Source: Catajapyx aquilonaris
Taxonomy: Eukaryota
Assembly (NCBI GenBank): GCA_000934665.2
Contig: JYFJ02002445.1
Coordinates: forward strand, 1 to 56,979
Direction of reading: 5' to 3'
DNA length: 56,979 bases
Shown here: positions 318 through 41,244 of the stretch, one piece after another
How the letters are laid out: every line of letters starts with the position of its first letter
Numbering within the stretch: the stretch's first letter is position 1
Notes under the pieces: generated by a model
Databases searched by the model: none
Seen by the model: the letters and a program-made list of their open reading frames with translations, nothing else
What the model was told of the DNA's origin: nothing
Made by a program: the position numbers and the translations under genes

Positions 318-2754
318 TTAGGTGACAGACATCCAGACAGATATAGGTCTTGAAATATGTATTAGATTATCATTGGCACCTGTTCTCCAGGAAACGAACT
401 TCTCGGCGACGAAAACCAAAGTGATACAACAGTAGATAATGAAGGTGCCCAGGAAAAGGCCTTTCATCTGATTGTAATTCAGCGCAAGTGAAGGAGCTGG
501 CAGGAGATATCGCCTGTTCCTGGCCTCATAAACTTTGATGTCATACAGTGCGTCGAGGTTGTACTTGACATAATATCCCAGCAATCCGGCAGCCTGCATG
601 CGCAGAATAATGCAATCAAACCTCGGTAAGAGGATGTCGTGCTTAGCAAACATTGCAGATACCAGAAACGTTGTCGCCGTGAAGTCCAACCAGGTGAATG
701 GCATGTTTCCAGCCATGTCCAGGTGTTCATAAGCCGCCTCCATTAAGAAGAACGAGGCACTGATGCAGGAGTAGTCCTCCGTTAGCGTGCTCAACACGCA
801 TTCCTCAAGGGTGTCCCTCAGTTCCATGGAGTCAGCCAGTCTTCTGTGGCTCTCGTAAGCCGAATCGGCCAACAGGACCTGGGCTATTAGCCCATGAATA
901 GCCAAGCTTCCCCACCTCCATCCAGGTCGTGTTGTCAAATCATCAATATCCCTGAAACATACAAGTTTAAGATCGCAAGAGTGGGCTGACAGGGAATAAT
1001 AATTGATTGATTAGTCATTCCAGGGGATGTGAACAAAGTCGGCTGAATTCAAAAAGATCAAGGAATATCCTAACTTTGTGGCCGAGTTTTAAAACTATTG
1101 TAGGTTTACCTGGGAAGTGTCTCGTGATCCGGATTGGCCAGAAACCCGATCAACTTGGCGGTGTATCCACAGGTGATGACCACAGCGAATGTCCACCAGA
1201 GAGAGAGGAACATCCTGGCAGAGTGTGACATCGGGACAAGGTTTGGGTTCTCCTCGATCAGGGTCAGGAGGACATAGGTCAGGGAGTAAGGGAAGAGGGG
1301 AGGGGAGGGCTTGGGGAAGGGGGAGGTGACCTTCTTGGTGGTGACCAGGAGGAGAAGCCAGAGGAAGAGGCTTCCGATGATGCAGGAGATGGCGATCAGG
1401 AGCCACATTCCATTGGTGTAAGGGTGGATTATCACGTCCCAGGAATCGACTATTCGCGGCTGGCGGAAAAGAGCGGATCCGTATGAATTAATGAAAGGGT
1501 AAACATACTCTGCCACTTCCAAGGGACGTGTGAATATCACGGTGCCAGGAATAAAGTCGTATTCCCCGTACAGCAGTGACCCAACCATTCCCATCCACGT
1601 CCCGTCTTCCATCTTTGGGTCGATGGACACCGCGTTTTCCATTGCTGTCACTCGAAAGTCGAAATTTATGAAGGTGCTCAAATCCAAATACACGAGCTCA
1701 CCCGCGAGGAGGTATTTCCTCTGGAAGAACCGCTGCAAGATTGTGTCGTGATCCACTTCCACCTCCGTGGGATAAACACCAGACAGTGTTCTTCCCTGGA
1801 GGTCAAGTGTGAAATCTGGGAACAACTGGGTCACCATAGTGGCGTTTGAGTCTATCTCTACCATTTGAGGCTCCCCATTGTTGCAGAAGAAGCAGGTTGA
1901 TGAGAGTGAGAAGGTGTCCGTATCCACCACAAGCTTGAATCTGAAAAAAAAGGACATTCACGTTTTCCAAGTATCCTGCAACTGGTATCCCAACAAACTG
2001 GCTGCTGCTAAATTTGCTGCAAGTTTTGTTTTTAACAATTATATACAGTATTCGTTGTAAACAGTAAAGGACTGCAAAAATTGGCCACCACTCTCAGGAT
2101 AATTAATATTAAAATTCTGCAAGGTTCTTAGTGCCTGCTACTTCCATTTCAATGCAAAGATTGCCAAATCCCCATCGATCATCAAGGTCTTCTTGACTTA
2201 AGAGGATCGTAATTAACTGTTGCTCACCTGAGGATCCGTGAGTGTTGATGAGTGAGGATCTTGTCATGTCCACCATTCCTGGTGAAGAAGATGAAGCGAT
2301 GTTGACGAGTGTTGAGAAGAACAATCGCTGCAGTTTTCTCCATCAAAAGTTCGAAGTTCTCGTGACGAAGGAAGAAGACAAAGAAGGTGCAGTGAGCAGG
2401 AAGATGGGCGGTCGGACGATGCAACCAGTCGAACCAGTAGGTCACAGCTGAGGTGTGGTTGGCCGTGGGGTCATCAGGAACCTCGGTGACACTTTCAGCT
2501 TAAGAGTGGTCAAGCCGGATGAGCGGCATAATCATGCGTCCTTTCTCATAAATAATTTTGAGCCACTGACTCAGATGAGGAGGAAGAGTGAAGTAATCGT
2601 GAGCTAAGACAATCATGCAGGATGACTCCAGCTGCGATTCAATCCTCTCCAGAAGGTCAACCTCTTGTGTTACAGTTACGTTATCCAATGTGTTCAAGAA
2701 TGCTTTGACCGCAACGTTTGTCAGCAGCAGGAAGGTGATCAAGAGCTTGGACAT
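318..2754 (-). pseudogene. Divergent ionotropic receptor IR-A; full-length 3-exon frame with one in-frame TAA at codon 85 (pseudogene, null allele or readthrough candidate)
   Basis: Exons 2754-2228, 1940-1110, 951-318, with GT-AG phase-2 introns; total 1992 nt = 664 codons. Signal peptide MSKLLITFLLLTNVAVKA, S1 motif DGTWMGMVGSL, M1/pore, M2 GYTAKLIGFL (iGluR SYTANL equivalent), S2 and C-terminal TM LNYNQMKGLF. TAA at 2502-2500 where paralog IR-B has GAA. Confidence 0.88.
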
Positions 2755-3419
2755 CTTAACCAAAATCACGTGTGCCTAACTTCGTCCAAGGTCAGGCTGG
2801 TCAGCGTCTGCTGAAGTAGTCAGTTGAGTCAGAACGACCTCTCAAAAATGAAGTTTATAAGCACTCAGTCATTGATTTGTAAGACTTTACGTAACCTGTT
2901 TACCGCCGAATGGGTAATGCTTTTTAGCATGCAATTTTTAAACACATCCGTCAATTTTTATCATTTGTTTGTCATATGGCAGTGACTCAATAAATGAATA
3001 TTTCCTGTAAAGAGGGCCACATAGGCCTATTTTTAAATACGCTAATTTTACGCAGTTAGACTTGGACTGAATTTGAATCAGTTATTTAAAGATTCTCCTT
3101 TAGATTTTCCAAAATATTTTGTTAAGGCGGTTATGAAACTACAGGGTGCCAAATGTGCCAATTTTTGAGCATTTTTGCTTCGTATGCTTTCTTTTCTCGC
3201 CGCAAGGGAAGTGGATAATGAGTTACGGTCCTCTCACATCTGACGGCAGTACTGGCATCCTCAGTGGGAAGAGTTGGTAAGCAGGATTAGCCGCGACATT
3301 CAACACTGAACCAGGGGCTAGGCCGAGAACGTCAAAAGAAAGTGGCGGGGAGAATGAAACCAGTTTTTGATAATCTAATATTATTTTTTAAATTTATTAA
3401 AATAATCGCGGCCATCACC

Positions 3420-3468
3420 CTCGACCCCCACGGAGAAGGCTTCGCGACCCCCAGGTTGGGAACCACTG
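3420..3468. mobile_element. hAT (Charlie-like) terminal inverted repeat remnant
   Basis: AGGTTGGGAACCACTG (3453-3468) is the reverse complement of the Charlie-type TIR CAGTGGTTCCCAACCT, preceded by GCGACCCC subterminal motifs. No partner end found. Confidence 0.55.
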
Positions 3469-3864
3469 ATAGTTTAATACAGACACTGTCAAGTTCCATT
3501 GGCTGTTTATGATAAAGTGAAGTTATGAGCAGTTAGAAAAAAGTTATCCGAAAGGGTCCAAATAATTATTTAGATACATGTGTCCGAGTGCTTGCGAGTA
3601 GAGGCGGTAGAGATTGTGAATTTCTGTTCATACAATAATAAATAATTTGGGTTTTTCAAAATTGCAAAGGTATGGGTATATGTTGAGGTGGGCAAATGCA
3701 CCTTTCCCAGCCAATGCAAAGGTGGGATTGCAGATTGGTTGCAGGGTATAGGGAATCACAGATATGTGAATGCACGGAGGAACGGGTGAGGGTGCGGGGG
3801 GGGGGGTGGATATGATTGGCATCATCACTGGCAATAAGTCCGAATCGATTAAAAATATGGTGGG

Positions 3865-4021: not shown

Positions 4022-6410
4022 TCATTGGCACCTGTGCTTTGTGCTCCAGGAAAAGAACTTCTCGGCGACAAAAACCAAAGTGATGCAACCGTGGATAATG
4101 AAGGTGCCCAGGAAAAGGCCTTTCATCTTATTGAAATTCAGCGCAAGTGAAGGCGTTGGCAGAGATATCGCCTGTTCCGGGCCTTATAAACTTTGATGTC
4201 GTACAGTGCGTCGAGGTTGTACCTGTCGTAATATTCCAGCAATCCGGCAGTCTCCATACGTAGAATAATGCAATCAAACCTCGGTAAAAGGATGTCGTGC
4301 TTAGCAAACATTGCTGAGATCAAAAACTTGGTTGCCGTGAAGTCCAACCAGGTGAATGGCATGTTTCCAGCCAAGTCCAGGTGTTCATAAGCCGCCTCCA
4401 TTAATAAGAACGAGGCACTGAGGCAGGAGTAGTCCTCCGTTAGAGTGTCCAATACGCATTCCTCAAGGGTGTCCCTCAGTTCCATAAGGTCAGCCAGGCT
4501 TCTGTGGCTCTCGTAATCCGAATCGGCCAACAGAGCCTGGGCTACTATCCCATGTAGAGCCAAGCTTCCCCACCTCCATCCAGGTCGTGTTGTCAAATCA
4601 TCAATATCCCTGGAACATACAAGGTGTTTCTCTGCACAAGTTTACGATCCCAAGAATGAGCGGACATGGAATAATTGATTGATTAGTCATTCCAGGGGAT
4701 GTGAACAAAGTCAGCTGAATTCAGAAACATTTAGGAATATCCAAACTTTGTGGCCGAGTTTTTAAAACTATTGTAGGCTTACCTGGGAAGTGTCTCGCGT
4801 TCCGGGTTGGCCAGAAACCCGATCAACTTGGCGGTGTATCCACAGGTGATGACCACTGCGAATGTCCACCAGAGAGAGAGGAACATCCTGGCAGAGTGTG
4901 ACCTCGGGAAAAGGTTTGGGTTCTCCTCGATCAGGGTCAGGAGGACATAGGTCAGGGAGTAAGGGAAGAGGGGAGGGGAGGGCTTGGGGAAGGGGGAGGT
5001 GACCTTCTTGGTGGTGACCAGGAGAAGAAGCCAGAGGAAGAGGCTTCCGATGATGCAGGATATGGCGATCAGGAGCCACATTCCGTAGGTGTATGGACGG
5101 ATTATCACGTCCCAGGAGTCGATTGTTCGCGGCTTCCGAAAGAGAGCTGATCCGTAGGAAGTAATGTATGGGTAACCATAGTCTACCACTTCCATGGGAA
5201 TGGTGAATGTCAAGCAGCCAGGAGCAAAGTCGCATTCCCCGTACAGCAGAGACCCGACCATTCCCATCCACGTCCCGTCTTCCATCTTTGGGTCTAAGGA
5301 CACTGCATTCTCCATCACTGTCACTTGAATGTCGAAATTCATGAAGGTTCTCAAATCCAAATACACGAGCTCACCGGCGAGGAGGTATTTCCTCTGGAAG
5401 AACCGCTGCAAGATTGTGGCTTGATCCACTTCAAAGTCCACGGGACAAATACCTGACAGGGTTCTTCCCTTAAGGTCAAGGGTGAAATCTGGGAACAGCT
5501 GGGTTACCATAGTGGCGTTTGAGGCTATCTCTACCATTTGAGGCTCCCCATTGTTGCAGAAGAAGCAGCGTGATGAGAGTGAGAAGGTGTCCGTGTCTAC
5601 AACAAGCTTGAATCTAAAAAAAGAGAGGACATTTACATTTTCCAAGTAGCGTGCAGCTGGTATCCCGACAACTGGCTGCTGGTCAATTCGCCGCGAGTTT
5701 TGTTTTAAACAATATACAGTATTCCTTGTAAACAATAAATGACTCCAAAAATTGGCCATTATCTACCACTCTCAGGAAAATTAAAATTCTGCATGGTTCT
5801 TAGTGCCTGCTATGGCCATTTCAATGTAAAGATTGCAAATCCCCCATCGATCATCAAGGTCTGCTTGATTTATGACAATTAATTAACTGTTGCTCACCTG
5901 AGGATGCATGAGTGTTGATGAGTGAGGATCTTTTCCTGTCCACCATTCCTGGTGAAGAAGATGAAGTGATGATGACGGGTGTTGAGAAGAACAGTCGCAG
6001 CAGTTTTCTCCATCAAAGGTTCGAAGTTCTCGTGACGAAGGAAGAAGACAAAGAAGGTGCAATGAGCAGGAGGATATGCGGTCGGACGATGCAACCAGTC
6101 GAACCAGTAGGTCGCAGCTGAGGTGTGGTTGGCCCTGGGGTCATCAGGAACCTCGGTGACACTTTCAGCTTCAGAGTGGTCAAGTCGGATGGGCATAATC
6201 ATGCGTCCTTTCTCAGAAATCGTTTTGAGCCACTGACTGAGATGAAGAGGAAGAGTGAAGTAATCGTGAGCCAAGACAATCATGCAAGATGATTCCAGCT
6301 GCGATTCAATCCTCTCCAGAAGATCAACCTCTTACGTTATCAAATGTGTTCAAGAATGCTTTGACCGCAACGTTTGTCAGCAGCAAGAAGGTGATCAAGA
6401 GCCTGCACAT
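4022..6410 (-). pseudogene. Ionotropic receptor IR-B pseudogene (recent tandem duplicate of IR-A)
   Basis: Exons 6410-5898, 5613-4783, 4609-~4022, colinear with IR-A including introns and upstream DNA. An 11-bp deletion near 6333 gives MCRLL...FDNVRG*. A 1-bp deletion near 4162 changes RYLLPAPS to RYLCQRLHLR*. Confidence 0.9.
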
Positions 6411-7000
6411 CTTAGCCAAAATCACGTGTGCCTAGCTTCGTCCAACGTCAGGCTGATCAGCGTCTACTGAAGTGGTCAGTTGAGTCAGAACGAACTCTAA
6501 AAAATGAAGTTGATAAGCCTTTTTTTACGGAAATGCGTTTGGAACAATTTGGTACTTATTTGGTAAACTATTCCCTCTATAGTCCAAATGCCACTGGGAG
6601 GTTGTGGTTTGGTGATTAAATATACAATGGCTCTAAGGTTACCTATTGTAAGGGCACATTCAGACGTTGATTTGTAAGATTACGTAACCTGTTTACCGGC
6701 GAATGGATAATGCTTTTTTCATGCAATTTTTAAACACGTGCGGTCAATTTTTATCCCGCTTTGTTTGTCATTTGGCAATGACTCAATAAATGAATATTTC
6801 CTGTAAAGTGGGCTATACATAGGCCTATTTTTAAATACGCTAATTTACCGCAATTAGACATGGACTGAATTTGAATCAGTAATTTAAACATTCCCCTTTA
6901 GATTTTCCAAAATAATGTTTTTGTTAAGGTGGTTGTGAAACTACAGGGTGCCAAATGTGCCTATTTTGGAGCATTTTTTCTCCGTACGCTGTCACTAACT

Positions 7001-7166: not shown

Positions 7167-7425
7167 CTTTCAGCTTCAGAGTGGTCATGTCTGATGGGCA
7201 TCAGGATCATGCGACCTTGCTCAGAAATGTGTCCGAACCATTATTTTGTTGAGATGAGGAGGAAGAGTAGAATAATCGTGAGCCAAGACAATCATGCAGG
7301 ATGACTCCAGCTGCGATTCAATCCTCCAGCAGGGTGACCTCTTCATGCACCAATTCAGATTCGTCAAAAAGTGCTTTGACTGCTACTTTTGTCAGCAGCA
7401 GGAATGCAATGAAGAGCCTGGACAT
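7167..7425 (-). pseudogene. IR-C remnant (5' part of exon 1 only)
   Basis: ATG at 7425 (MSRLFIAFLLLTKVAVKA..), homologous to IR-A/B exon 1 up to ..HDHSEAES. 2-bp frameshift near 7325. Truncated exactly at the MITE. Confidence 0.85.
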
Positions 7426-7877
7426 CTCCAAGAAAATCTGTCCTTTGCTTTTTCCAAAGTATTCTCGAAAGCGACTGCTGAAGTGGTCAGTTGACAAAGT
7501 GATGCAATTTGTTTGCGGATCTTTTACGGAAATTCATGAGCAGTTATAGGGTATTTATTGCCTGGAGTCTTAACATGTGACATAATTTACGGAATAGACT
7601 CCAATACACGGAGTTACACAATGTGTTCTTGCTAGAAGCGCAGATTCAGTCATTGATTTTTAAGAGTGAGTCTCTAAAAACTTGTTTGCCTCAGAATTGG
7701 TAATGTATTTTTTCTTGCAATATTTAATCACATCCGGCAATTTTCCATCTGTGTTTGCCACACGACAAAAAAACTCCATAAATGAATATTTCAGTCAAAG
7801 TGGGCCACGTAGGACTGTTGTTTGGATAATGGGTATCAGACTTCGACAGAATTGGGATAATCTTTAACCCTTTCATT

Positions 7878-8057
7878 AGGGCTGTCGGCTGTGCGATATC
7901 CGAAATTACATATCGACTTTCGATACTTAAAAAATATCGAATCGAAGTCGATATATCGAAAATCGAAAAACTGACATCGGAAAATATCGAAAACCGACAT
8001 CGAACCGACATCGAAAAATATCGAACCGACATCGAAAAATCGCGATATTCGATACAC
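7878..8057. mobile_element. hAT-type MITE end with ATCGA/ATATCGA subterminal repeats
   Basis: TAGGGCTG start followed by many tandem ATATCGA/ACATCGAA motifs. Confidence 0.6.
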
Positions 8058-8169
8058 TTTACTAACCTGCATAGTGTGCGTAATTACAAGGCGCAACCAC
8101 TTCAATTTAATAAAGCCAACTTAAACAGTTAATGGTCGTTGTCAATTATTTATAATTATTCAATAACTC

Positions 8170-9012
8170 ATTATTCATTGCCAAAATTTTGGATCTGCTG
8201 TACTTTGAGCTCGGGGAAACCAACTTTTCGGCTACAAAGACCAAAGTGATGCAACCCTAGCTAATGAGGATGCAGCCCAGGAAATAAGGAATTTCATCTG
8301 ATTGAAATTCAACCCAAGTGATGGGGTTGACAGCAGATACAGCTTGTTTCTGGCCACAAAAACTTCGATGTCGTATCATACAATGCGTCGAGGGTGTACT
8401 TGTCGTAATATTCCAGCAAACCGGCCGCTTCCATACAAAGATTAATGCAATCAAACATAGGTATAAAAGGATGTGCTTAGCAAACATTGCAGAGAGTAGA
8501 AACTTGGTCGCCGTGATAATTATGCAACCAAGTGAAGGGCAAATTTCCAATCATGTCCATTTGTCCAGGTGTTCATAAGCGGCCTCCATGATGAATATCG
8601 AGGCACTGAGGCAGGAGTAGTCCTCTGTAAAAGTGTCCAATGCGCATTCCTCAATGGTGTCTCTCAATTCCAAGAGGTCAGCCCAGCTTTCTGTGGCTCT
8701 CAAAATCAGATTCGACCAACAGGGCCTGGCCATGTAGAGCCAGGCTCCCCCATCACGTCCGTCTTGGCGGTGTCGTCAATTCCTCAATGTCCCTGAAACA
8801 CACAAGGTCATACACATGTCACACATGGCATACAATGTGATGATGATGATGATGAGGATGATGATGACGACGACGACGATGTTACAAGTTAGACTTTTTA
8901 AAACTATCGTACCTGGGAAGTGTCTCGTGATCCGGGTTGGCCAGGAACCCGATCAATTTGTGGGACCATCTGGGTCACCATCTTTGACTCGATCCATTGA
9001 CTCTACCATTTC
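8170..9012 (-). pseudogene. IR-D remnant (degenerate exon 3 plus internally deleted exon 2)
   Basis: Translates to ..LLELRDTIEECALDTFTEDYSCLSASIFIMEAAYEHLD.. and ..TATKFLLSAMFAKH.. with several frameshifts. The 3' end of exon 2 (8912-8958) is fused to bases resembling the exon-2 5' part. Confidence 0.85.
8838..8881. repeat. (GAT)n(GAC)n microsatellite in the IR-D intron
   Basis: GATGATGATGATGATGAGGATGATGATGACGACGACGACGATG. Confidence 0.9.
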
Positions 9013-23853: not shown

Positions 23854-26016
23854 CTACTGAACTTCCATAATGTTTGTGTTTTTAAAATACCGGTAACGCT
23901 TTACTACAACCTCAATCACAAATGAGGGAAAAGCCAAAATTACGTAAATGAACATTAAGCTGTAAAAGAGACCTTTCATTTGCTTGACATTCAACGCCAG
24001 AGAAGGCACTTCTAACAGGTAGCTCCTCTGTCTAGCTTCCTTCACTTTCTCCAGGTAATGAACTCTGAAAGTGTACTGATCATAAAATTCTACCATGCCA
24101 GCAGCATCCAAACGAAAAAGCGCTTTATCGAAACGTGGTTTAAGAAAATCATGCTTTGGAAACACCATCACGCAATAAAATTTTGTCGAAGTGTCATCCA
24201 CTCTGGAAAATGGATAGTTTCCGTTCATGTCCAAGAAATCATCAGCTGCCCTGATGAGATATCTTGCAATGCTCATGCAGGCGTAATCATCATGAATAAC
24301 TGAGAGGAGACATTCATCGAAGGTGTCTCTGGATTCAATGTTGTTGGCCAGGTGCTGAAGGCTCTCCACCTCAGCTTCCCCGAAAAGTATCTTGCCAAAT
24401 ATTGCATGAAGAGCCAGAGACCCCCACCTCCATCCTGGTCGAGATGTCAAATCAGCTACGTTTCTATTTGATTTATATGGAGATGAGAACAATGATTTTT
24501 AAATATTGATAAAAGAAGTGTCTTACTTAGGTAGGTCCTCATAAATCGGGTTGGCCAGAAACCCGATCAACTTGGCCGTGTATCCACAGGTGATGACCAC
24601 AGCGAATGTCCACCAGAGAGAGAGGAACATCCTGGCAGAGTGTGACATCGGGACAAGGTTTGGGTTCTCCTCGATCAGGGTCAGGAGGACATAGGTCAGG
24701 GAGTAAGGGAAGAGGGGAGGGGAGGGCTTGGGGAAGGGGGAGGTGACCTTCTTGGTGGTGACCAGGAGGAGAAGCCAGAGGAAGAGGCTTCCGATGATGC
24801 AGGAGACGGCGATCAGGAGCCACATTCCCTTGGTGTACGGCCGGATTATCACGTCCCAGGAGTATAGGATTCGGGGTTTGCGGGTGAGGTAAGTCAAAAC
24901 AGCTGGGTCCTCTACAAATAATCCATAGTCGATCACTTCAAGAGGATTAGTAAAAGCTACAGATATGACACATAAGTCAGCCTTCCCATACAAAAGTGCT
25001 CCGATCATTCCTATCCATGTGCCATCATCCATTTTGTCTTCAATAGAAATAGTATTTGTCATAACTTCAATCTTCAATGAAAAATTCATGTGTCTAGTGA
25101 AGTGAAAATAAAGGAATTCCTGGAGGTGTACGAATTCTCCCTTTTGAAACCTATCCATTACGATGCTGTGATCCGTTTCCAACGTATTAAACGGATAAAT
25201 ACCCCGAACAGTTTTTCCTTGTAAGTCATAAGTATAATCAGGAAACAACTTATCAAGACTGGTGGTGTCCCAGTCAATATTGACTATTTGCCCTTCCCCC
25301 TGGTTGCAAAAGAAGCAGTTTGACCAAAGCAACGATGTCTCCACATCTACCACCAGCTTGTTCCTAGAATACAAGAACGTCATAACATCAAATCAAAATT
25401 TAGTTTTTAACTATTAAGCATTTTGACATTTTTGCAAGTGTACATAGATTAGGTCTTACAATTAAACCTACTTCAATACTGATGAATGTTGATGACGAAG
25501 TATCTCCTCCACCCCTCCATCCCTGGTGAAGAACATGAAGTGATGTTCGAGTGTGTTGATCAGAACACTGGCCGCAGTGGTCTCGATCAGTAACTCGAAG
25601 TTTTCATGTTGGAGGAAGAATGCAAAAAGCGTGCAGTGGGCATGATGCGTGGCACTAAGACGATGCAACCAGTCGAACCAATAAGGTTCAGGAGTCGAGG
25701 TCAGATTGGCCGTTGATTCATCCAGCACTTCAGATTCCTCTTCAGAATTCAGGTGTGGTAGTTGAATTGTTAGGATTGTCTGGTTCTTGCTTGCAAAAAT
25801 GTTAAACAATTTCGATAGAAGAAGTGAACTGTTGTAATCATGAGAAAAAACGAGGAGGCATGGATCATCAAGTAGTGGTTGAATGTCTTTCACCAGAGAA
25901 AGTGCACGATGCAATGTTATGTTGTCGCTTTCGTTGAGAACAATTTGATATTCTGTACATGGTGCAATACACAATGGAAGGAGGTAGACAATGGTAACCC
26001 GCACTATACTTTCCAT
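23854..26016 (-). CDS. Divergent ionotropic receptor IR-E (intact, 663 aa)
   Basis: Exons 26016-25472, 25363-24527, 24463-23854 (1992 nt, open), with the same two phase-2 introns as IR-A. Signal peptide, DDGTWIGMIGAL (S1), GYTAKLIGFL (M2), RLDAAGMVEFY (S2), LNVKQMKGLFY (M3). Confidence 0.93.
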
Positions 26017-27016: not shown

Positions 27017-27387
27017 GTACCAAAGTAGTCCGCATAGTTACTTTCATTTAAATGATAAAATAAGTAAATTTATTTTCTGTAATTGGTCATTTATTCTGAT
27101 GCTGATCTCATCGTAGGCACATAGTGACCCCCAAAAAATTATGACTAACTTCTATGCAAGAATGATGATGATTGTGAAATTGTATCGGTATGGACTGAAA
27201 CGTGGAATGGACGGGAATGCCTTTGGTGTCTTTTTGTTCCTGAATACATGTAATACCTGGTAATACTGTGTGATTATAGTTTGATTCCACCCTATACCGT
27301 GTCACATACCATAACATGTTATGACGTATCACGCCGAATCGCTCTCTTCCTAAAATACAGGCACCAATCACATCGTAGTCTTATACA

Positions 27388-30300
27388 CTATAGGGAATCA
27401 TCTGCTGTCCTGTTTATGGATACCACGTTTGGGTCTCTAGAAACTATGATTGGTGCTGGACATGCTTCCTCCGGAGACATCAATGGTGTCGTACACTGAC
27501 CAGTTCCGGCCGGCCGCTCTTTCCTGAGAAATAAAGCATGACTTATAGGAAAGATTAATTCCATATCCACAATTAATAATACCTTATTGGCAGGCAGTCG
27601 CAGAGATGCTGGTCCTTCCCAAACTGCTCTCCGTCCTCCAGAGTGTTGGGCAGGTTGGTCCCTAGTGTCTCCGGAAGCATCATGCACAAGAGTCCTCCGA
27701 AGATGGACAGAGCTCCCAAGATGAACAGCGGGACACCCTTCCCAAGGACGGCCAGGTAGACGATGACAGGTGACACAATGCTTCCAACATAGCCCATGAT
27801 GTGGATGGTGCTGACTCCTTGTGCTCGAAGCACTGTTGGAAGCAACTCAGCTATCAACTGCAGACCAATGTTGAACACAACGTTGATGCACATCCGACCA
27901 AATATAGCCAGTGTTGCCGACAGAAGCGGTAAATCTGAAAGTTTAAAACTCATAGTCTTTCCGAGCTTTGCCTCACCATGTATAAATGAAACTACCTCTT
28001 GGAACAGCGATGGCTGCGAAAGAAAACAATCCTGAAAGACAAAGAGAACCGACGGCCAACCACCGTCGTCCCCATCTGTCCAACGTCAGTACGACGAAAA
28101 TGTCGGCTGGAAACTCTGTCGAAGATGCGATAGTGAATGTGATGAATATGCTGAAGCCCAAGTTGCCCACATTACGAGCATGACCATCGTACTCCACGGC
28201 TATTATCAACCTGCAATATGAATTAACATGAGTTTACATGTCAAATGTCAGTAGCAGATTTGTACTGACCAAACGATAGTCATCACAATAGTATTTCGTC
28301 TCAGATTTGGAGTCTTTAGCAGGTCTAAAAATGTGTACCGTCGATCTTGTTCCGTTTTTCTCTCAGCTTCAACATGATCCTGCAAACAATTTAATTAAAG
28401 TAATTATGCATGGTGGGCAGTTAGAGGGATAATCCTGGCAAACACAAAAAATTGCATTTAATCCATTATAATTGCACAGAATATTTGTAGATGCGTTACA
28501 AACAAAGGCTAATAAATAAATTAGATGCAATAAATTGCATTCCTCTAATTTATTTATTTGTTGTCTTTTGTAACATAATTATCTACAAATATTCTGTGCA
28601 ATTTAAATACCATTTTAATGCTACTTTAATTTTGCAACCTGTATGCAATCTTAAGCAGTTAAAAACAGTTCAAAGTGTTGAAACAACAATCTATACCTGC
28701 TACATAAACTTCCATAGTGATAGTCCTTATCGTACTCTACTTACTATGAACATGTTGTACGTATTGTCATCTATCTTCTTTCCGTTCCACTTCTCAAATC
28801 TCCTGAGGATCACCATGGCCTTGTCTGTCTGTCCCTTAGAGATAAGCCACCTGGTGAAACAAGGTCATTGCATAATAATTACAGGATGACCATGTGCGAT
28901 TGCCGTTTGTATATACCTGGCGCTTTCTGGGACAATCCAATACGCCAATATGGACACAGCCATGGGAGCCGAAAGGGACAGAGTGAAAATTCGCCAGTCA
29001 CGAATGTAGTACGCTGCCCAGGGTACGATCAGGGTACCGGCTGTGTAGAAAGTGGCGATGGACAGGTTGGCCACCAATGTACGCCATTTGGGACCCACAT
29101 ACTCCAAAGCTGCAAAGAACAGCACTAAGCACTTGCTGTACCAACACCTATAGGTATATGGACTCACCGAGAATGTACATCATTGTCATGACGTTGTCAA
29201 AAGACATTCCTATTATGAATCGAACTACTAGGAACACGTAGAAGTTCGATGCCAATGCGGTGAAGCATCCAGCCATGCAGGCCAAAATGTTGGTGGCCAG
29301 CAAAGCAGGGACACGACCCCAGTTGTCTGCCACGAAACCAAACAACAATCCTCCAGTGATGGCCCCCATGAAGAACACAGACTGTGCGATTGTTGGTTTG
29401 GTCGCCTCATCGCAAACCCAGTTGTTCTGCAAATAATGTAACAATTAGAAGTGTGTCGCACAAAAGACAACTTGACTGAAAGTGTTCAGTAGGCCATAAT
29501 TAGATTACAAAAGGGCACAGGTCCATCAATACACTATTACAAAAAATAAATTGTTTAGCCCAGAAACTACTTAAATTAAAACAACATGTAGAAAGCATCC
29601 TCTAAGAATAAGCGATCACTTCTTTACCCGCACAAGTAATTATATTCATATCAGGATTTGTGCCGTTTTTTGCTGTTTTGTTGCGAAAAGAGTAACCTCA
29701 GAAGTGATGGTTTCGTACGGAATCTCCGAGAAATCGTACTCCCAATCCTTGCAAGTGGTGATGGGCCAGGTGCTGTTTGGAACCAGGTTTTCTTCTAGAA
29801 CCTGGGTGTAGTTGACTGCGTACATGCTGCACTTGCTGAAGGTCAATGTATACGAAAACATGTCCTCTCTCTCCAAAGGTATGCTCAGGTTTTTTCTGCA
29901 GTGTAAATAAATTATGACAACTCGTGTCAATGGTATACAGTTTGTAAGAAACAGGACATACACAGTTATTCTAATGCATGGTATTAAATTAAAATAATAA
30001 AATAATAATTGTAATATTTTATTAATAATAACCATGACTTAGTTAAATACATAACCTTTCATATATTATTATGAAAAAATATTAAGCTGTGATCATAATA
30101 TAACAGGGCACGTGTTCCACGGACTCAAAAGTGCGATCTTGACATAACACACTGCGTCACAGTCATAAATTATATTTTATGTACTTCTTGCACAACCCTT
30201 TTGTGTTAGTGCCATTAAAGCTATTTATACATTCATTGTTTACACACCATTTGACTTCTACAAAATGCGCATGGCTATGTTGGAATATTTGGGCACATGT

Positions 30301-30620
30301 TTTCTGTCGCGCATCAAAAAGGCACATTTTTTATTGAATTGTTCAGGGTCAATGATATCACTCGCCTTCAGTGCCACATGGCCCCGTTTGCCATTCCATC
30401 ATGTGCTAGCAAGTATTAAAATATATTATTCTCACCTAAGAGTAACAGTCAGATTTTGAAGTTCGTCCACCCTGCACCAGTGATCCGGCGTGAGAGTAAT
30501 GAAAAGCTGGCTGAAGTACACAAACGTCACAAAAATGAAGAACGGACACTGCATCATGAACAACACCTTCTGGTAAAATCCAAACTCTCCCAACTGAATC
30601 AAAAGCTCGTCGAAATCCAT
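27388..30620 (-). CDS. SLC22/MFS organic cation transporter (carcinine-transporter-like family), copy B, 584 aa
   Basis: Exons 30620-30436, 29895-29697, 29426-29168, 29109-28917, 28850-28745, 28379-28270, 28210-27996, 27934-27583, 27523-27388 (1755 nt, all GT-AG). Motifs MDFDELL..GEFGFYQK, NWVCD, ADNWGR, PESARWL, LDRWGRR, AELLPTVLR, LPET. Confidence 0.93.
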
Positions 30621-31293
30621 CTCTTTGCTATAAAGAAAACTATCCTTATTGCAATGTATGTGCCATGTACTGTTGGACACTTGCTGACCAGAAATGAGAC
30701 ATTCGGCCAGTCTTTGTCCACTACTCCGGTGCAGTAGGTCAGAAGCACATGTATTGATCACTAGAAGCCGGGCTAGGGGGACGACCATGCATACTATTGG
30801 AGAAGGGGGAAAGAGAGGGGCTGTGCTTACGTGACGTGTGTGCGAAGCAAGTGTCAATGATTTATATTTACATGACAATACGCTGTTTCTAAGGGGAGTA
30901 ATGTGCATGCAAATTGATCGTTCGTGGGTACCCAGATTGATTTTTTTTTTGCGAACTGGCAAAACTGTTGGTTGCGAAATGCGCATGCTTTGTATTGAGC
31001 GTGGGAATTTCATCTGGACAGTATGATTCATGCAGGTCTTGACAGAGGAAGATACTAAGGAGGAAAAGTCTTAGCTAAATGATTGATATGACCTGATGGT
31101 AAGATGCATAATGTTGCCATTATTATTCTGCATGTAGAAGCAATTGGTTGGTACACAGGTGAATTATTATCAGCAGTCAATGTCAGCACAATGTCATTTA
31201 TTTACATACAAACCAAACATATTTCCAGGTTCAAACGGGCGTCTTTGTCTATGGTCGTTGTGGTTGCGTGATGCGGTAGGTGTGAACCCAAGT

Positions 31294-34200
31294 TCATACT
31301 GATGAATCTGCTGTTGGTTCAGCTTTCTTACGCTGAAGTACAGATGGAAGTGTAGGGTCATCAGACACAATGCTTGGGATTCTGTTCGCTTCTTCTGGGG
31401 TCAGAAGAGGCGATGTGACCTGACCTGCGTTACTAACCACGTCTTTTTGGCGATACCTGCAAATTTAAATGTGGTGTCAACAATGAAACCTGTGGATCTT
31501 CCTAAGTGCACAGCGAACCTTGGCAGACAGTCGCAGATACGCTGGTTTTTTCCAAACTGTTCTCCTTCCTCCAGAGTATTTGGGAGGTTGGCTCCAAGTG
31601 TCTCAGGAAGAAGCATACACAAGAGTCCTCCGAAGATGGACAGAGCTCCCAAGATGACTAGTGGGACACCCTTCCCGAGTACGGCCAGGTACACGATGAA
31701 CGGCGACATTATGCTTCCAACATAGCCCATGATGTGTATGGTGCTGACTCCTTGTGCTCGAATCACTGTCGGAAGAAGCTCAGCAGCATACTGAAGACCA
31801 ATGTTAAACACGACGTTGATGCACATGCGGCCCATGATGGCCAGAAACGCAGACAGTATCAGCAAATCTGAAGGAAATATTAACTGTATTATTTATTACA
31901 ATTAAAATAATAAACGTAGAATATTGTCTAACGTTTAGGAACAGCGATGGCGGCGAAAGAAAACATTCCGGAAAGACAAAGAGCAGCAACAGCCAACCAC
32001 CGTCGACCCCATCGGTCCAATGTAAAGACCACGAGCATGTCTGCTGGAAATTCAGTCGACGATGCGATAGAGAAGGTGATAAAGATGCTGAAACCCAGGT
32101 TGCCCACGTTACGAGCATGACCATCGTATTCCAGTGCAATTATGAGCCTGCAGAACATCACACTTATTACATGTTGCACTTCATGGAGTTATAATCATTG
32201 CTTTTTACCAAATTGTTGTTAGCACTAATGTGGTACGTCGCAGATTTGGCGTCTTCAGTAGATCTAAAAATGTGTACCGGCGATCTTCTTCCATTTCTTT
32301 TCTATCTGCTTCGACTTGAGCCTGAAATAAATACATTGAATAAAATAATAATAATACAGTGGAAGTGGCTTATAGCAAAAAAAATGCAATTGAAAACGCT
32401 ATTTGAGACAAAAATATCCATCAATTTCCATGAGGAAATATGTCGATCTATTATTTTTTAAACTCTTTTCTTACTAAAAACCTTCGATATGTGTCGTTGT
32501 CCACTTGTTTTCCGTTCCATTTTTCAATACGTTTGATGATTTTCATGGCTCGTTCCGTTTGGCCTTTAGAGATGAGCCACCTAACAAAAAAATCATGTAT
32601 TTCACACTTAATTACAGAATCTGTTTTGGTCAAAATAATATAGATCATTTACGTTGTGCTCTCTAAATTTTCATCTTACCTCGCGCTTTCCGGAACTATC
32701 CAATAGGCTAATATAGTAACCGCTATTGGAGCAGATGTGGACAGAGTGAAAATGCGCCAGTCACGAATGTAGTACGCTGCCCAAGGTACGATCAATGTAC
32801 CGGCAGTGTAGAAAGTGGCTATGGACAGGTTGGCCACCAGTGTACGCCATTTGGGACCCACGTACTCCATAGCTGCACGAAGAAAACATTTTTTAAAAGT
32901 CTTTCGCACTCTCTATGGACAGGTACTCACCGAGAATGTAGATCATAGCCATGCAATTGTCGAAGGACATCCCGAAAATGAATCGGACCAACAAAAACAC
33001 GTAGAAGTTGGATGCCAATGCGGTGAAGCATCCAGCCATACAGGCCAGCATGTTAGTGGCCAACAATGCAGGAAGACGACCCCAGTTGTCTGCAACAAAG
33101 CCGAACAACAATCCTCCAGTGATGGCCCCCATGAAGAACACAGACTGGGCGATTGTTGGTTTGGTAGCCTCGTCGCAAACCCAGTTGTTCTGCAAGTGAC
33201 ATAACAATCGAAAATATCGCACCAGATTATGCAGTGATGTGTGTCCACTATATTGATTGTTAAAAGGCGCAAGTCCACCAGTATACGCTATTACAAAAAG
33301 TAACCTCAGAAGTGATGGTTTCGTACGGAATCTCCGAGAAATCGTACTCCCAATAATTCTTGCATGTGGTGATGGGCCATGTGCTGTTTGGAACCAGGTG
33401 TTCTTCCAGTACCTGGGTGTAGTTGACCTCATACATTCTGCACTTGCTGAAGGTCAGTGAATCACTGAACATGTTCTCTCTCTCCAGAGGTATGCTGAGA
33501 TTTTTCCTGCAAACAATTTTTTTTTCATCTGTTATTGGGAAAAAATCATGTTACAAGTACACTGCTGCACTCATACCAAGGGCAAAAAAACAAACATTTG
33601 TCAAGTAATTTTTTTCCATGTATCTTACTGGAGCCGCTACAGAACCATTACGCCCATTAGAACAGCAGACCTTGTGAAGTGCCTCTCATATGTAAATCTT
33701 CCCAATATAGGTCTGTCATAATTTTTGATATGCATAAGCAGTTATAATTGGCCTGAGATTGTTGTTCTCGTCTAGATACCAGAAAGCTCAACGTCATTCT
33801 CTAACTGGCAGTTTTATTGTATGGAAATACAATCTGTCTTCTAGAGCTATTAATTAAGCAATTTTAATATTCTAACTTCCAAGTAATTTCCATTTACGTT
33901 GACATGTGCTTATGACCCTGCATTGTACTGTACACACCTCCTTGCCTTATCAATGTGCAGACATGCCCTTATCTTGAGAGCTGCTGCCGACAAGTCCTAT
34001 CGCCTATTGATATACTGTACTGTAGTAGCTAATAGTGTAGCACAAGTGCCTGCAAAGCTGCATGCTTTAACATTATCACCTCTTTGATGTACAATATTTT
34101 TGGACGAAATGAATCATTCGTTAGCAACTGTCAGTAACCACACATTACACTATAAAGAAATGTGGCATCATTGCAATCTATAGAGCTGAAACTCTTTTCA

Positions 34201-34430
34201 CGTGCCAAGTTGGCGAAAAAGACTATAGAGTTAAAAATAACTCACCGGAGAGAAACACTGAGATTTTGAAGTTCATCCACCCTGCACCAGTGATCCGGCG
34301 TAAGAGTGATGAAAAGCTGGCTAAAATACACAAACGTCACAAAAATGAAGAACGGGCACTGCATCATGAACAACACCTTCTGGTAAAATCCAAACTCTCC
34401 CAAGTGAATCAAAAGCTCGTCGAAATCCAT
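31294..34430 (-). CDS. SLC22/MFS organic cation transporter, copy A, 594 aa
   Basis: Exons 34430-34246, 33506-33305, 33189-32931, 32872-32680, 32580-32475, 32321-32209, 32147-31933, 31867-31519, 31456-31294 (1785 nt). Same motifs and intron positions as copy B. Confidence 0.93.
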
Positions 34431-35676
34431 CTTTGCTTATGATCACAGTCCGCACTGTTCAGCCCCACAAAAATTAACCTCCGCACAACTTAAACGAGGG
34501 TTAATTCCGAGTCCTTGACGTCACCACAAACACTTAAAGAATGTGAATGGCCGCCATCAAATTCGAATATTTCAGTTGCTGCTCCAAAAATGTGAGTGTT
34601 AACACATAGGAGCACATATCCAGACTGTGATGCACCTGGTTAGGTTCAAGGGGGGTGGGGGAAACTTATAGATGCGGCGGAGGGGGATGACCTTTATTCT
34701 TAGTTGACGACTTAAACGTGACTTTGACTTCAATGTTTATGATAAGATGTAGGCTGATGATTAGCTGGGTAAATAAAGACCACGATTGGATGTGCAACCT
34801 GTACAGAATACGTTAACCCAATCTATATTTTGATTGACCCTCAACTGATGGCATTGTTGGGATGACGAGGTTGTTGGGAACTGATGACATTGTAGGTCAA
34901 TCTATGTAGGCCAATGCCCATTTTCTGAAACGTTCAGGGGGGGGGACATCTGTGGTCATTTATTATGGTGAATAATTATTATTATTATTTCACAATTTTA
35001 TTTATGATCATAAATAAAACTTTTTTTAAAAATTGGGTAGGCATTTGGTATTAATAAACCAGGGGTCCAATTTTGGTCTCGTGGCTAGTTACTTCTAACT
35101 TAGCAGTAGTACCAGTGTTGTCAATGGTATACTGCTAAGTTAGCAGTAACTATCTGTGGGAGGAAAATTCCACCCCATGAGACCAGAGATGATAACTTTT
35201 TTAAAAGACTGATCTGCCTCCTAAAAATTGGAAAGTGATGCTCAGAATCAGAAATTTCCCTCGTATTTTAACGGTTAAAGGATAATAATGATAATTGATA
35301 TTACTCGTGATGTTGGGGCACTCATAACATATCTACTTTTTTTCCGGTGACGCAAAAAAATGTGACTTTTATCGCCAAAAAGTTGTCATTTTGGCGCTAA
35401 GCAAGAAGTGTACAGGATCATTGTTAAGTCAATACGCGGTAACCTTTTTTCGCTTCGACAAACTTGAAGTTCTTATGAAAGTCAAGGTCATCAGTAATAA
35501 TATTGATGACGCAACCTTGACTGGAGCCTAAGGAAGCAGCTTAATTGCACAATTATTGTGGAATTCAGTTGCTTCCTTAGCTCTTCCGCAATGGCACATT
35601 TAAAAAAATAGTGTTTTTTTGTTTTCGTTTTTTGTTTTTTGTTTTGGTAGTAGGCCTATGTGGGTAAGGACAGAAA

Positions 35677-38600
35677 ATGTATAGGGAATTGCGCTTCAGT
35701 ACGCTGCCCCATACTGCTGAGTTGAGGATTACGACTATGGGCAACGACGGAGTCAAAGATGTCTCAATGGCCAAAGGTGCAGAAGGGGACACTGAAGATA
35801 TTCGGTCCTTTCTATCAGGAAGAGACGTCCTTGTGACCGGAGCCACCGGATTTGTTGGGAAGGCTCTTCTGGAGAAGATTCTGAGGTCGTGTCTTCATGT
35901 GGGCACCGTCTTCCTGCTCATTCGACCGTCCAGAGGAAATAATGTAGAAACCAGAAAGAAAGAATTGCTCAGCAGTCAGGTACTTTGAGTCCCTTCACAC
36001 ATTTTAATTCATGCAGATTTGCAGGCGGGGTTCAAAAATGTCATAAGAAGCTTATTACATTAAGTTTATATCATATTTTGTAATAATGCATGATAGTAAT
36101 CTGCCAATAATACACAACATATTTGGCACAGATTACATAATATACGGTAAAATTTGCTCTACCTAACATTCCTTCAATTTCACAGCAGAATGCAAAAGCG
36201 TGAGATGCCATGGATTGGATTCGTCATTAATATTATGGGTTGACATAGGCGTGATTTTATTTGTTCTTAGAATTGTTTTTTGAGATATTATTTGTTCAGG
36301 TGAAATCAATCGACCTTGGGAGTATAGCTATTTTTTATCTCAAAAAAGACGAATTGAATGGTTTTATGATTGTCCTGGCAGCAGAAAAACAAGTAAGCAA
36401 ATTGCCACATGGATTACTTGCTTTTGCATAGATGATAATTTATTTACTGGGTACCATTTGCGAATTTTGCGTTTTCAAATGCCGTGTCACGCAGAAAATG
36501 CACGCAGAAAATGCACGCAGAAAATGAAAAAAAAAAACCTGAATGACTTCCATTATTAATAATTTATGAATCCAGAACGCCTCCACCAATATAATGAAAG
36601 GTATATCGTATATGACCACATACTATTGCAAGATAATAAATTAATAATCGAAGTATCGAAGCACTTCATTTCCTTTCCAACCTATTGCATTGTACACTTT
36701 TTATCTTTTGGTGTTACGTATACACCACCACCAAAGGTGGGCATTAGCTCCTTTAATCAGCTAACAGCTAATAGCTGAACTAACGTTTCGCTAGCTGATT
36801 AGCTGCTTCCGCTAACTTTTCAGGTCGCTAGCTGACTAATTAGCTCTCACTAAATTAGTGCCGCACTGCAGCTAAATACAATCAGCTAACAAAATTAATC
36901 CGTGTTCCTGCTGTGTCGATGTCTGTTACTTTTTAAAGTTGCATTGTTTCCACTCCAGGCAGGGATTAATATAGACCAGTTTATGAGTGGCCAGGGTTGG
37001 GGACTTCAAGGCCCTATGGTGGAATCTGGGAAGACCGAAAGGGTAAGGTGAAGGTGAGGATCCGGGTCATAGGGTGGTATGCAGGCCACTTTCCCGCCCA
37101 CTGGTGACGCACGAAAATTGAACGTCTTTCTTTCAATGTCCAAAAATGTGGTGAACCAGCCAAGTGAGTCAACCAATAGCAATAGTCGATCCAGTCAGGG
37201 AAGATATGAACTGTAGCATGGGGGGGTTTGCCAGAAACATCTGCATTTCCTCAGGTTAAACACAGGGGGCGAAGGGGTATAGGCTGGGGGGAGAGCCATT
37301 AGCCCCCGCTTTTGGACATATTGAGGGCCAAGAGAGCCAGCTTCTCTGATGAAAATTTTGAGAGGCTGATTTTTTTGAAGGCTAATCAACATCATCTTAA
37401 TACAAACTAACCAACCCGAAATCTGAGTGGAACTCTGTGTAGTGTTTGTTGGTTGTAAATACGCTCGCAACGTACTGCGATAGTGAGTAGTGTACAAATC
37501 TGTCTTATACAAATCTGTTGTCTTTTTGTCTGTTTGTATTTTTTTTTCTTTACGCACATTTTCAGCTATTTGACCTGTTTGCATGCCCACCTACTATGTG
37601 TTGGCAGCCGTTTGGTACTATCACTGCGGTGTGCGGAATTATTGTTTAAAACTCCCTTTTTTGCCGCCGCCGATATACATTGTACTCATATTACAGGGCT
37701 AGGTGCCGGATTGTAAATTCTGTTCCTGTCTACCTGGCCAAAACTTATTTTCTGATCACTTTGGTGCGCGGATTACATTATAGCTACCAGTTTTTTAAAT
37801 ATAAATTTTGCATTGCCTGTCTTTGGAGCTTTTTCCTATTTGGATTTGTGTATTACTTTTTGTATGGAACAGTAAATAACTAAATAAGCCGTATGTGTAG
37901 CAATGCTCTCTAGGCTTTATCAGCTCAGGTCTCGTTTTTAAGGGTCATTGAGCAAAAAAAGAGACGAAGTTAGCTGTTAGCTGTTAGCATTAGCTCTAAC
38001 TAATTTTCTAGCCATTTAGCATTAGCTATTTAGCAAATCCAGTTTTTTATAGTTAGCTGATCAGCTGTTAGAGAAGCTGATTTTTCGGTTAGCTGTGCCC
38101 ACCTTTGACCACCACCATCAAAGTGTGATGCTGCACATTGAGTAGATAATTATGTTGTCCTTGATAAAATTGGCTTCTTTCTCATCTTCTTTACGTTTTC
38201 ATGCAGGTATTGAGTCGAGCCTTGAGAGAGCAACCCGACTGCACGTCAAAGGTGGTGGCAGTGGAGGGTGACCTGTCCTGTGTCAACCTGGGAATGTCAC
38301 AAGAATGGTGGGACCGACTTCAGAGGACAGTTTCAGTCATCTTCCACGTTGGGGCCTCGGTCAGGATGAGCGATCCCCTCCTGGAAGCAGCACGAGTCAA
38401 CCTGGGTTCGGTTCACCACCTGGTCAACCTTGCCCGGGGCATGCCCCACCTGCGAGCCTTCGTCTACGTCTCCACCGCCTACTGCAACCACGACTCTCCG
38501 GACAAGCCAATGGTCAAGGAGAAGGTCTACCCATCCCCTTGCTCTCCAACACTCATGCTCAACCTGATGGACACTTGCAACCAGGAGCAAATGGAGATGG

Positions 38601-39673
38601 TCCTGCCCAGGCTCAGAGGTCAGAAGAGCAACACTTACGTCCTCACTAAGTCTGTGACAGAGAATTACCTGCAGGAAGCATGCATTGCATACGGACTGCC
38701 AGTGGCCATCGTGCGGCCATCTATAGGTGAGATTAACTTTGCACTTCTTTTTAAATTATTACATAACTTAATATGTAGGCTACTAGATGTAGTGAATGTG
38801 AATCTTTCAGTGGTATCGTCTCTGTCGGAGCCGGAGGCTGGATGGGTCGAGTCCCTGTCCGGTTCGCCTGCGATGATGGCAGCTGCAAGCCAAGGAGTGA
38901 TGAACTCGGTCCTGTTGGACCCAAACAAGTTGGCAGACTTCGTACCAGTTGATCATCTGGCCAACAGTCTCTTTGCTGTATCCTTGCGTCTTCATCACCT
39001 GGCGAATAGTCAAATAACATGGGAGAAGCCTCTGGTACTTCACGTCACATCTGGAACTGTCAATCCTCTCTCCTTTGGCCAGTTTCTCCGAATCGCATGG
39101 TCTCACGCGTCAGATATGCCGTCTGAGGATCTGATACTACCACCGTGGCCAGTGTACCACGCCACAAAAATAGGGTATCAATTACATCGATTTTTCGCTC
39201 AGTTACTGCCCAGCATGTTCTTTGATATTGCGAAGGTGAGTAATGTTAGTTAGATAATAATTTGCTGGATATGATAGTACACAGATGACCATTATGAATA
39301 TTCACTTCTGTCTTTCGTCATACAGTTTCAGTTCCGCCTCTTACGTATTCAGAGTCGCTTGCACATTATGTCCTGCCTGTGTGCCCCATTTGTAACGGAC
39401 GACTGGTTGTTCGAAACGAGTCAGATGAATGACCTGTGGCAATGGCTGTCTCCCCAGGACAGAGCCCTCTTCCCTTTCCATCCGTCGCTCATCAACTGGG
39501 ACACACACATCAAGGACTACGTGGCAGGTGTCCGTCGATTCATACTCAGACAGAACCCTTCCACTATACCAGCTGCTCGCAAACGACTCGCTCGGATTCG
39601 GACCATACTCTGGTCTACTGCCATCTGCTGCGTCCTGATGATCGTAGGAGTTGTAATCAACAAGACGCAGTGA
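35677..39673 (+). CDS. Fatty acyl-CoA reductase (FAR; NAD_binding_4 plus Sterile domain)
   Basis: Exons 35677(or 35737)-35979, 38207-38726, 38811-39235, 39326-39673. Rossmann TGATGFVGK, VEGDL, FVYVSTAY, catalytic NTYVLTK, IVRPSIV, DFVPVD, C-terminal INWDTHI..GVRRFIL and a TM tail. Confidence 0.93.
36732..38107. mobile_element. Non-autonomous hAT-like element in FAR intron 1
   Basis: TIR CAAAGGTGGGCA / TGCCCACCTTTG, 8-bp TSD ACCACCAC on both sides, and arrays of TAGCT/AGCTA subterminal repeats at both ends. Confidence 0.9.
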
Positions 39674-40947: not shown

Positions 40948-41244
40948 CTTTTATGGGATCGTTACTTACTACACACGCAATAAGCAAAACTAATTAGATT
41001 TTTCCTGAGGTTCCGGTATGCTATAATAAACTTCACCTTGTATATGCGACAAAATGACAGAAATTCCCTATAAGAACGATTTCTCCGTCTTCTGTAAATC
41101 AGTGAATCCGTTTGACTAAAATGTCCAACTTGTCAATAGTTTCGCTTGACAACCAAGTAAACAACTGTATTTTAGCATGCAACAAACATTCACACATGAA
41201 CAAATTGCACTTAAAATGTTAATGGAAATCTATAATATTAAAAT

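Follow-up and report, generated by a model that had tools for sequence, protein, structure and literature searches.

Concerted evolution confined to particular domains is well documented for protocadherins and immune receptors. At some insect gustatory receptor loci, at UGT1 and in the protocadherins, variable exons are spliced to shared constant exons. Here we describe predicted genes of the ionotropic receptor (IR) type in contig JYFJ02002445.1 of assembly GCA_000934665.2 from Catajapyx aquilonaris (56,979 nt, forward strand; this whole stretch is called the window below), in which a 278-bp tract coding for the channel module, here called the cassette, is nearly identical between otherwise strongly diverged genes. 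As in the constant-exon loci, a variable recognition part is combined with one uniform remainder. In those loci, however, a single constant part is shared by splicing, whereas the IR cassette is repeated in every gene and is uniform at the DNA level.

The closest described system is formed by the clustered protocadherins of fugu and zebrafish, for whose variable exons the available part of PMC1852091, citing Noonan et al. 2004, PMC353213, describes regional gene conversion, using the same argument from synonymous sites and from the GC content of third codon positions (GC3). Going by that part of the paper, the fish genes and the IR cassette have much in common: both belong to a large neuronal receptor family, paralogues agree over part of one coding exon at more than 99% of positions, including the synonymous ones, and this part has raised GC3 and a discrete boundary to a divergent, diversity-bearing part. 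Unlike the fish genes, in which the 3' end of the exon is homogenised, the IR cassette is an internal channel module bounded on both sides, it belongs to an ionotropic receptor family, and the block is short (~280-340 bp). In addition, some of the IR copies are separated by 23 kb, many more probably lie elsewhere in the genome, and pseudogenes are among them. For IRs, the accessible text of Croset et al. 2010 (PMC2924276) attributes gene birth to non-allelic recombination and retroposition and never uses the word "conversion". The IRs described in that text resemble the ones reported here in being clustered, lineage-specific and divergent, with pseudogenes among them and the ligand-binding parts most variable; recombination accounts for gene birth there, but here would account for the homogenising of one module. 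Potential gene conversion is mentioned only among gustatory receptors in the accessible part of a spider-mite chemoreceptor paper (PMC5203786), and in a 2024 review gene conversion appears only in the reference list (PMC11526382). No report of domain-restricted concerted evolution in IRs was found in the titles and abstracts obtained from full-text literature searches. The process as such is of a known kind, and the novelty lies in the IR family concerned, in the embedding of a two-sided module and in the scale.

We conclude that the channel module of a large, lineage-specific IR family, consisting of M1 and the pore loop together with the helix that follows, most likely exists as near-identical DNA among dozens of paralogues, and that regional interlocus (non-allelic) gene conversion is the probable cause of this uniformity. 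A blastn self-search of the window located the tract at three places only, in the genes IR-A, IR-B and IR-E, together with a 71-bp remnant at 8896-8960 (Table 1). Comparing the window with itself, 276 of 278 bases are identical between IR-A (1134-1411) and IR-E (24551-24828), the two differences lying at 1160 (G in IR-A, C in IR-E) and 1390 (T and C, respectively). The copy in IR-B, the recent duplicate of IR-A, differs from IR-A at five positions and from IR-E at seven. Below 1134, ungapped identity between IR-A and IR-E is at chance level, while above 1411 the match fades over ~35 bases, with five differences in the next 36 bases. Megablast accordingly delimits a slightly wider block, 1130-1444 = 24547-24861 at 97.8% identity over 315 bp, and 4803-5119 = 24547-24863 at 96.5% over 317 bp for IR-B against IR-E. 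The tract codes for GMWLLIA...GYTAKLIGFLAN, i.e., M1, a proline-rich linker containing the pore loop, and the membrane helix after it; this helix corresponds to M3 of ionotropic glutamate receptors (iGluRs) and is called M2 in IR naming. The tract stops 24 bases short of the 3' end of exon 2, and at its other end the wider block of IR-A extends into the SWDVII...GMW stretch ahead of M1. In the remaining exon 2, windows of 20 codons are 46-75% identical between IR-A and IR-E, with third positions at 25-60%, and over the whole coding sequence identity outside the tract is ~57%. Intron 2 differs in length (952-1109 in IR-A, 24464-24526 in IR-E) and gives no alignment between the two genes.

Divergence at synonymous (dS) and non-synonymous (dN) sites was estimated for exon 2 after Nei and Gojobori, with 92 codons in the tract. 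For IR-A and IR-E, the tract yielded a dS of 0.014 and a dN of 0.005, reflecting one synonymous and one non-synonymous difference, compared to a dS of 2.9 and a dN of 0.41 upstream of it, where synonymous sites are saturated (proportion of synonymous differences, pS, 0.735). The dS values of IR-A and IR-B were 0.044 in the tract and 0.29 upstream, those of IR-B and IR-E 0.059 and 2.5. Where IR-A and IR-E have the same residue and the codon is degenerate, the same codon is used in 83 of 84 cases within the tract but in only 117 of 250 outside (binomial P = 1.9e-26). Therefore, protein constraint and chance cannot explain the identity of the tract. Conserved motifs outside the tract show synonymous change of the usual extent, as in RPGWRWGSLA with six differences in 30 bases. 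As for the relationship of the three copies, sites at which IR-A agrees with IR-E and not with IR-B stand against sites at which IR-A agrees with IR-B and not with IR-E as 5:2 in the tract and as 25:178 in the rest of exon 2 (Fisher P = 7e-4). The local tree of the three genes is inverted in the tract. The codon control and the Fisher test on site patterns stand in for a three-sequence fragment test of the GENECONV type, the number of polymorphic sites in the tract being seven. GC3 amounts to 0.80-0.83 in the tract, whereas upstream it is 0.48 in IR-E and 0.61-0.62 in IR-A and IR-B. A low dS in the tract, diverged sequence on both sides, tree incongruence and raised GC3, by which concerted evolution is recognised, are thus found together. 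A single crossover was ruled out, as it cannot leave diverged flanks on both sides.

These results bear out a preliminary description of the same DNA, which had pointed to a 278-bp tract with two differences, synonymous sites included, between two genes with unalignable introns and strongly diverged N-terminal and ligand-binding regions, and to an inverted phylogeny given the five differences between IR-A and IR-B. Its reading of the pattern as the signature of gene conversion is supported by the dS of the tract, by the inversion and by the diverged sequence on both sides.

In exon 1, the sequence coding for YWFDWLHR (2416-2439) differs between IR-A and IR-E at one of 24 bases in an otherwise diverged exon. 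This patch may be a second, very short homogenised stretch, or be due to chance.

To view the cassette in read data, we used four DNA runs (X1 to X4) of one sample and one study, dated 2014, in the form of short read-derived contigs, which were aligned to positions 24200-25200 at a threshold of at least 90% likeness. The runs may stem from the sample behind the assembly and are independent of the assembler, not of the data. The summed word depth of the contigs rises to 774-3795 in the bins of 24540-24879, compared to 18-43 in the flanks, i.e., to a mean of 59, 66, 79 and 55 times the flanks in X1 to X4, respectively, and returns to 1-2.5 times single-copy depth just outside the block. With 55-79-fold depth between single-copy flanks that stay at 1-2-fold depth, the cassette is therefore common to dozens of paralogues and not only to IR-A and IR-E; since word depth summed over contigs does not amount to a copy number, we limit this claim to "dozens of copies". 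Per run, 106-160 contigs match the region; the 160 contigs of X1 comprise 34 that are at least 99% alike, 63 at 95-99% and 63 at 90-95%. A contig matching 24683-24758 or 24693-24753 exactly (61-76 bases) has 11-14 times single-copy depth. Low complexity was ruled out as the cause of the depth peak, because the bins of greatest depth (24574-24675) do not fall within the G-rich run.

Contigs with loose ends leave the window sequence at 24530 and 24548 before the block and at 24848, 24863 and 24888 behind it, and the sequences beyond these points differ from one another. Judged by eye from the printed consensus, they resemble further splice donors and further S1 coding sequence; read in this way, the other copies would be IR paralogues. 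The high copy number and the sharp depth edges near 24540 and 24879 could also be produced by a mobile element that has captured a gene fragment, or by one chimeric gene that was amplified very recently. However, the cassettes of IR-A, IR-B and IR-E lie in frame between S1 and S2, within one exon and without terminal repeats, the loose ends of the other copies appear to be mutually different IR coding sequence and splice donors, and the flanks are old on both sides, with saturated dS, which is incompatible with a recent burst of whole genes. We regard an origin of this kind as extremely improbable.

The letters at variable positions also bear on the history of the copies. At 24601, the majority of the depth reads T, as in IR-B, while IR-A and IR-E share the minority A. 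At 24829 and 24831, ~41% of the X1 depth has the letters of IR-B, which is the carrier of the majority letter at all three positions. These variants fit a pool of cassette subtypes, of which IR-A and IR-B hold different ones. As the two genes are recent duplicates, at least one of them was therefore overwritten after the duplication. The earlier proposal that the ligand-binding lobes of the family vary while its channel module is kept uniform is thereby both supported and enlarged by the 55-79-fold depth between single-copy flanks. Conversion as the source of the tract shared by IR-A and IR-E stands as well, though not as a private event of these two genes: it is pool-wide, and the block measures ~315-340 bp. 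In each of two of the four runs, one contig joins 24709 to 24833 and skips 123 bases, with 31 letters on its short side. It possibly stems from another genomic cassette copy that carries a deletion, or is an artefact of the graph.

Several points weigh against conversion across a large family, in addition to the limit on contig depth given above. The tree inversion rests on seven informative sites, and the evidence-bearing copies in the window number three. The data come from a single species, whereas the classical criterion is that paralogues within a species are closer to each other than orthologues between species. As the contigs stop at the edges of the cassette and the block is crossed by none of them, the interior of the individual copies in IR-A and IR-E is unconfirmed by reads: in all four runs the contigs from the IR-E flanks reach as far as 24558 or 24576 and start anew at 24834 or 24839. 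Furthermore, the private C of IR-E at 24807, which is the second of the two differences from IR-A, occurs in none of the aligned contigs, all of which read T. This C might be a rare variant dropped in contig building, an assembly error or a strain difference.

The last two points, together with the 2014 date of the runs and the shortness of their contigs, are what would be expected of an assembly artefact, in which one high-coverage path of a ~340-bp repeat was written into both IR-A and IR-E and exaggerated their near-identity. Four private letters of IR-B are retained in the assembly, with none of them reaching a tenth of the contig depth; the assembly therefore resolved copy-specific variants. 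Likewise, the contig that matches exactly over 61-76 bases, with a depth 11-14 times that of single-copy sequence, shows true identity of that part in about ten or more genomic copies. Both differences between IR-A and IR-E lie 21-26 bases from the edges and are reachable by words anchored in the flanks. We consider such an artefact improbable, and even if it were complete at IR-A or IR-E, the family-wide pattern would remain. The only N in the window, at 22697 and 1.2 kb past the 3' end of IR-E (23857), hints at a scaffolded short-read assembly.

The assignment of the genes relies on models obtained from splice-site reading and translation. IR-A and IR-E both lie on the minus strand and have three exons, 663 codons (the count for IR-E including the stop) and the same intron phases. 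The exon-2 translations match the Pfam family Lig_chan (PF00060) with 41.5 bits for IR-A and 40.8 bits for IR-E, above the gathering score of 30.8 bits. The matches span positions 3-95 of the 146 in the profile and residues 183-274 of the IR-A exon-2 translation. The S1 model Lig_chan-Glu_bd (PF10613) reaches 18.9 and 19.1 bits on exon 2, compared to a gathering score of 30 bits. No Pfam family was found in the exon-3 translations of the two genes, although a hydrophobic stretch towards the C-terminus can be made out by eye. The ~176-181 residues ahead of exon 2 are too short for an iGluR amino-terminal domain, and the position of the S1 arginine is presumably occupied by leucine, judging the motif by eye. 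Language-model neighbours of the proteins fall into clusters with PF10613 and PF00060, mostly from Arthropoda, which we take as a lead only. Going by their sequence, the genes are of the ionotropic receptor type, and thus probably variant iGluRs.

A library scan with exon 2 returned 1033 hits at E up to 0.001, the best being ~28% identical, and a search among longer proteins gave no close relatives. Within the 150 best of the 1033 hits, the identity of the cassette protein is at most 35.4%, with a median of 26.6% (110 matches of at least 70 residues). The predicted cassette protein is hence not deeply conserved among these 150 best library relatives. In metagenome contigs, a protein-pattern scan gave 160 pattern matches, none of them confirmed, and an exact 34-base cassette pattern gave no match.

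The reading frame of IR-E is intact and gives a product of about 661 residues. IR-A contains a single in-frame TAA at 2502-2500, where IR-B has GAA, and is open in the remaining frame. IR-B, which is 91.8% identical to IR-A over 600 bp, has lost 11 bp of exon 1 (near 6333) and 1 bp of exon 3 (near 4162), and its frame changes are seen by tblastn. With the TAA in the one and two frameshifts in the other, both genes, as assembled, therefore look like pseudogenes. For the TAA of IR-A, a young pseudogene, a segregating null allele and read-through are all conceivable. Of the two further IR fragments in the window (7178-8968), the one at 8215-8968 retains only the last few tens of cassette bases; by blastn, 8896-8960 corresponds to 1087-1157 of IR-A at 85.9% identity.

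The retention of the cassette in IR-A and IR-B also argues against selection at the nucleotide level, in which a function of the DNA or mRNA, e.g., as a shared target of small RNAs, as a signal for splicing or localisation, or as a basis for homology-dependent control of receptor choice, would freeze the synonymous sites. A block that is common to dozens of genes and finishes near an exon end would suit such a function, and the mechanism is not directly visible. Yet an Rfam search of 24300-25100 at E up to 1 gave no match, and the RNA fold of the tract is unremarkable (z -0.24), an equally or more stable fold being reached by 79 of 200 shuffles. High GC3 and the tree inversion are predicted by conversion and not by constraint. 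Moreover, many copies differ by 5-10%, as seen from the 63 of 160 X1 contigs that are 90-95% alike, and the low conservation of the cassette protein among its 150 best library relatives speaks against such a constraint, too. Taken together, we judge nucleotide-level selection very improbable.

Gene conversion could act on the cassette as follows. The channel module, being the most conserved stretch, would alone be similar enough to pair, and every conversion would restore identity, which would make the process self-sustaining. Conversions reaching the ligand-binding parts would be stopped by mismatch or removed by selection for receptor diversity, and GC-biased repair would raise GC3. The N-terminal, S1, S2 and M4 parts and the introns would be free to diverge. 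A G-quadruplex-type motif with seven G-runs at the centre of the cassette may, speculatively, favour breaks. The same motif is present in the other two cassettes, at 1282-1323 in IR-A and 4955-4996 in IR-B, so that three of the six plus-strand motifs of this type found in the window by regex scan sit inside the three cassettes. The G-run corresponds to the template strand of the IR genes and codes for the proline-rich linker; a DNA fold calculated with the G-quadruplex option makes use of it.

As the apparent pseudogenes IR-A and IR-B keep the cassette, this mechanism needs no selection on each product. It is nevertheless conceivable, if rather doubtful, that selection keeps the cassette as a repeated "constant region": a self-sustaining, GC-biased hot spot, maybe seeded by the G-quadruplex, would then preserve, in dozens of IR genes, a uniform channel that fits one co-receptor pore, and ligand specificity would evolve as the lobes around it are exchanged and diverge. 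Co-receptor compatibility as the purpose is not favoured, because pseudogenes keep the cassette and because M4, also a likely partner contact, lies outside the cassette and has diverged.

Table 1 Receptor genes, cassette copies and associated features in the window.
Feature	Positions	Strand	Details and basis
IR-A gene	321-2754	-	exons 2754-2228, 1940-1110, 951-321
IR-B, recent IR-A duplicate, likely pseudogene	4040-6431	-	A/B nucleotide alignment, tblastn
Two IR fragments	7178-8968	-	exon-1-like 7178-7437; exon-2 end and broken exon-3-like piece 8215-8968 (tblastn)
IR-E gene	23857-26016	-	exons 26016-25472, 25363-24527, 24463-23857
Cassette copy, IR-A	1134-1411	-	276/278 identical to IR-E; Lig_chan match
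Wider homogenised block, IR-A	1130-1444	-	megablast, 97.8% over 315 bp
Cassette copy, IR-B	4807-5084	-	5 differences from IR-A, 7 from IR-E
Cassette copy, IR-E	24551-24828	-	sequence comparison; flank contigs enter the block in 4/4 runs
Family-wide homogenised zone, multi-copy in reads	24540-24879	-	word depth of contigs
G-quadruplex-type motif, seven G-runs, cassette centre	24699-24740	+	regex scan

Beyond the receptor genes, the window contains two tandem genes of the major facilitator transporter type (27301-28400 and 31520-32327), which are 77% identical over 816 bp. Pfam reports Sugar_tr with 37.4 bits on 32893-33453, and MFS_1 stays below its cut-off. As the pair is only 77% identical, homogenisation like that of the IRs is not seen there. 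A direct repeat of 192 bp with 93.75% identity (30431-30622 and 34241-34432) may be a repeat element near the transporters. Further along, an exon of the fatty-acyl reductase type (38168-39253, plus strand; Pfam NAD_binding_4, 152 bits) stands beside a gene with MATH, BTB and SPOP-type BACK domains (39885-40950, minus strand). Both are ordinary animal genes adjoining the receptor cluster.

If the cassette is real and family-wide, the best-aligning part of these receptors, the channel region, would distort phylogenies of the IRs of this lineage as well as their birth-death estimates, and IR trees would be better built on S1 and S2 only. Short-read assemblies of such families may misassign variants inside the cassette. 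With pseudogenes in the conversion pool, non-functional copies can donate variants to working receptors. The family would then also serve as a natural experiment for telling the parts of an IR that have to be uniform from those that are free to vary.

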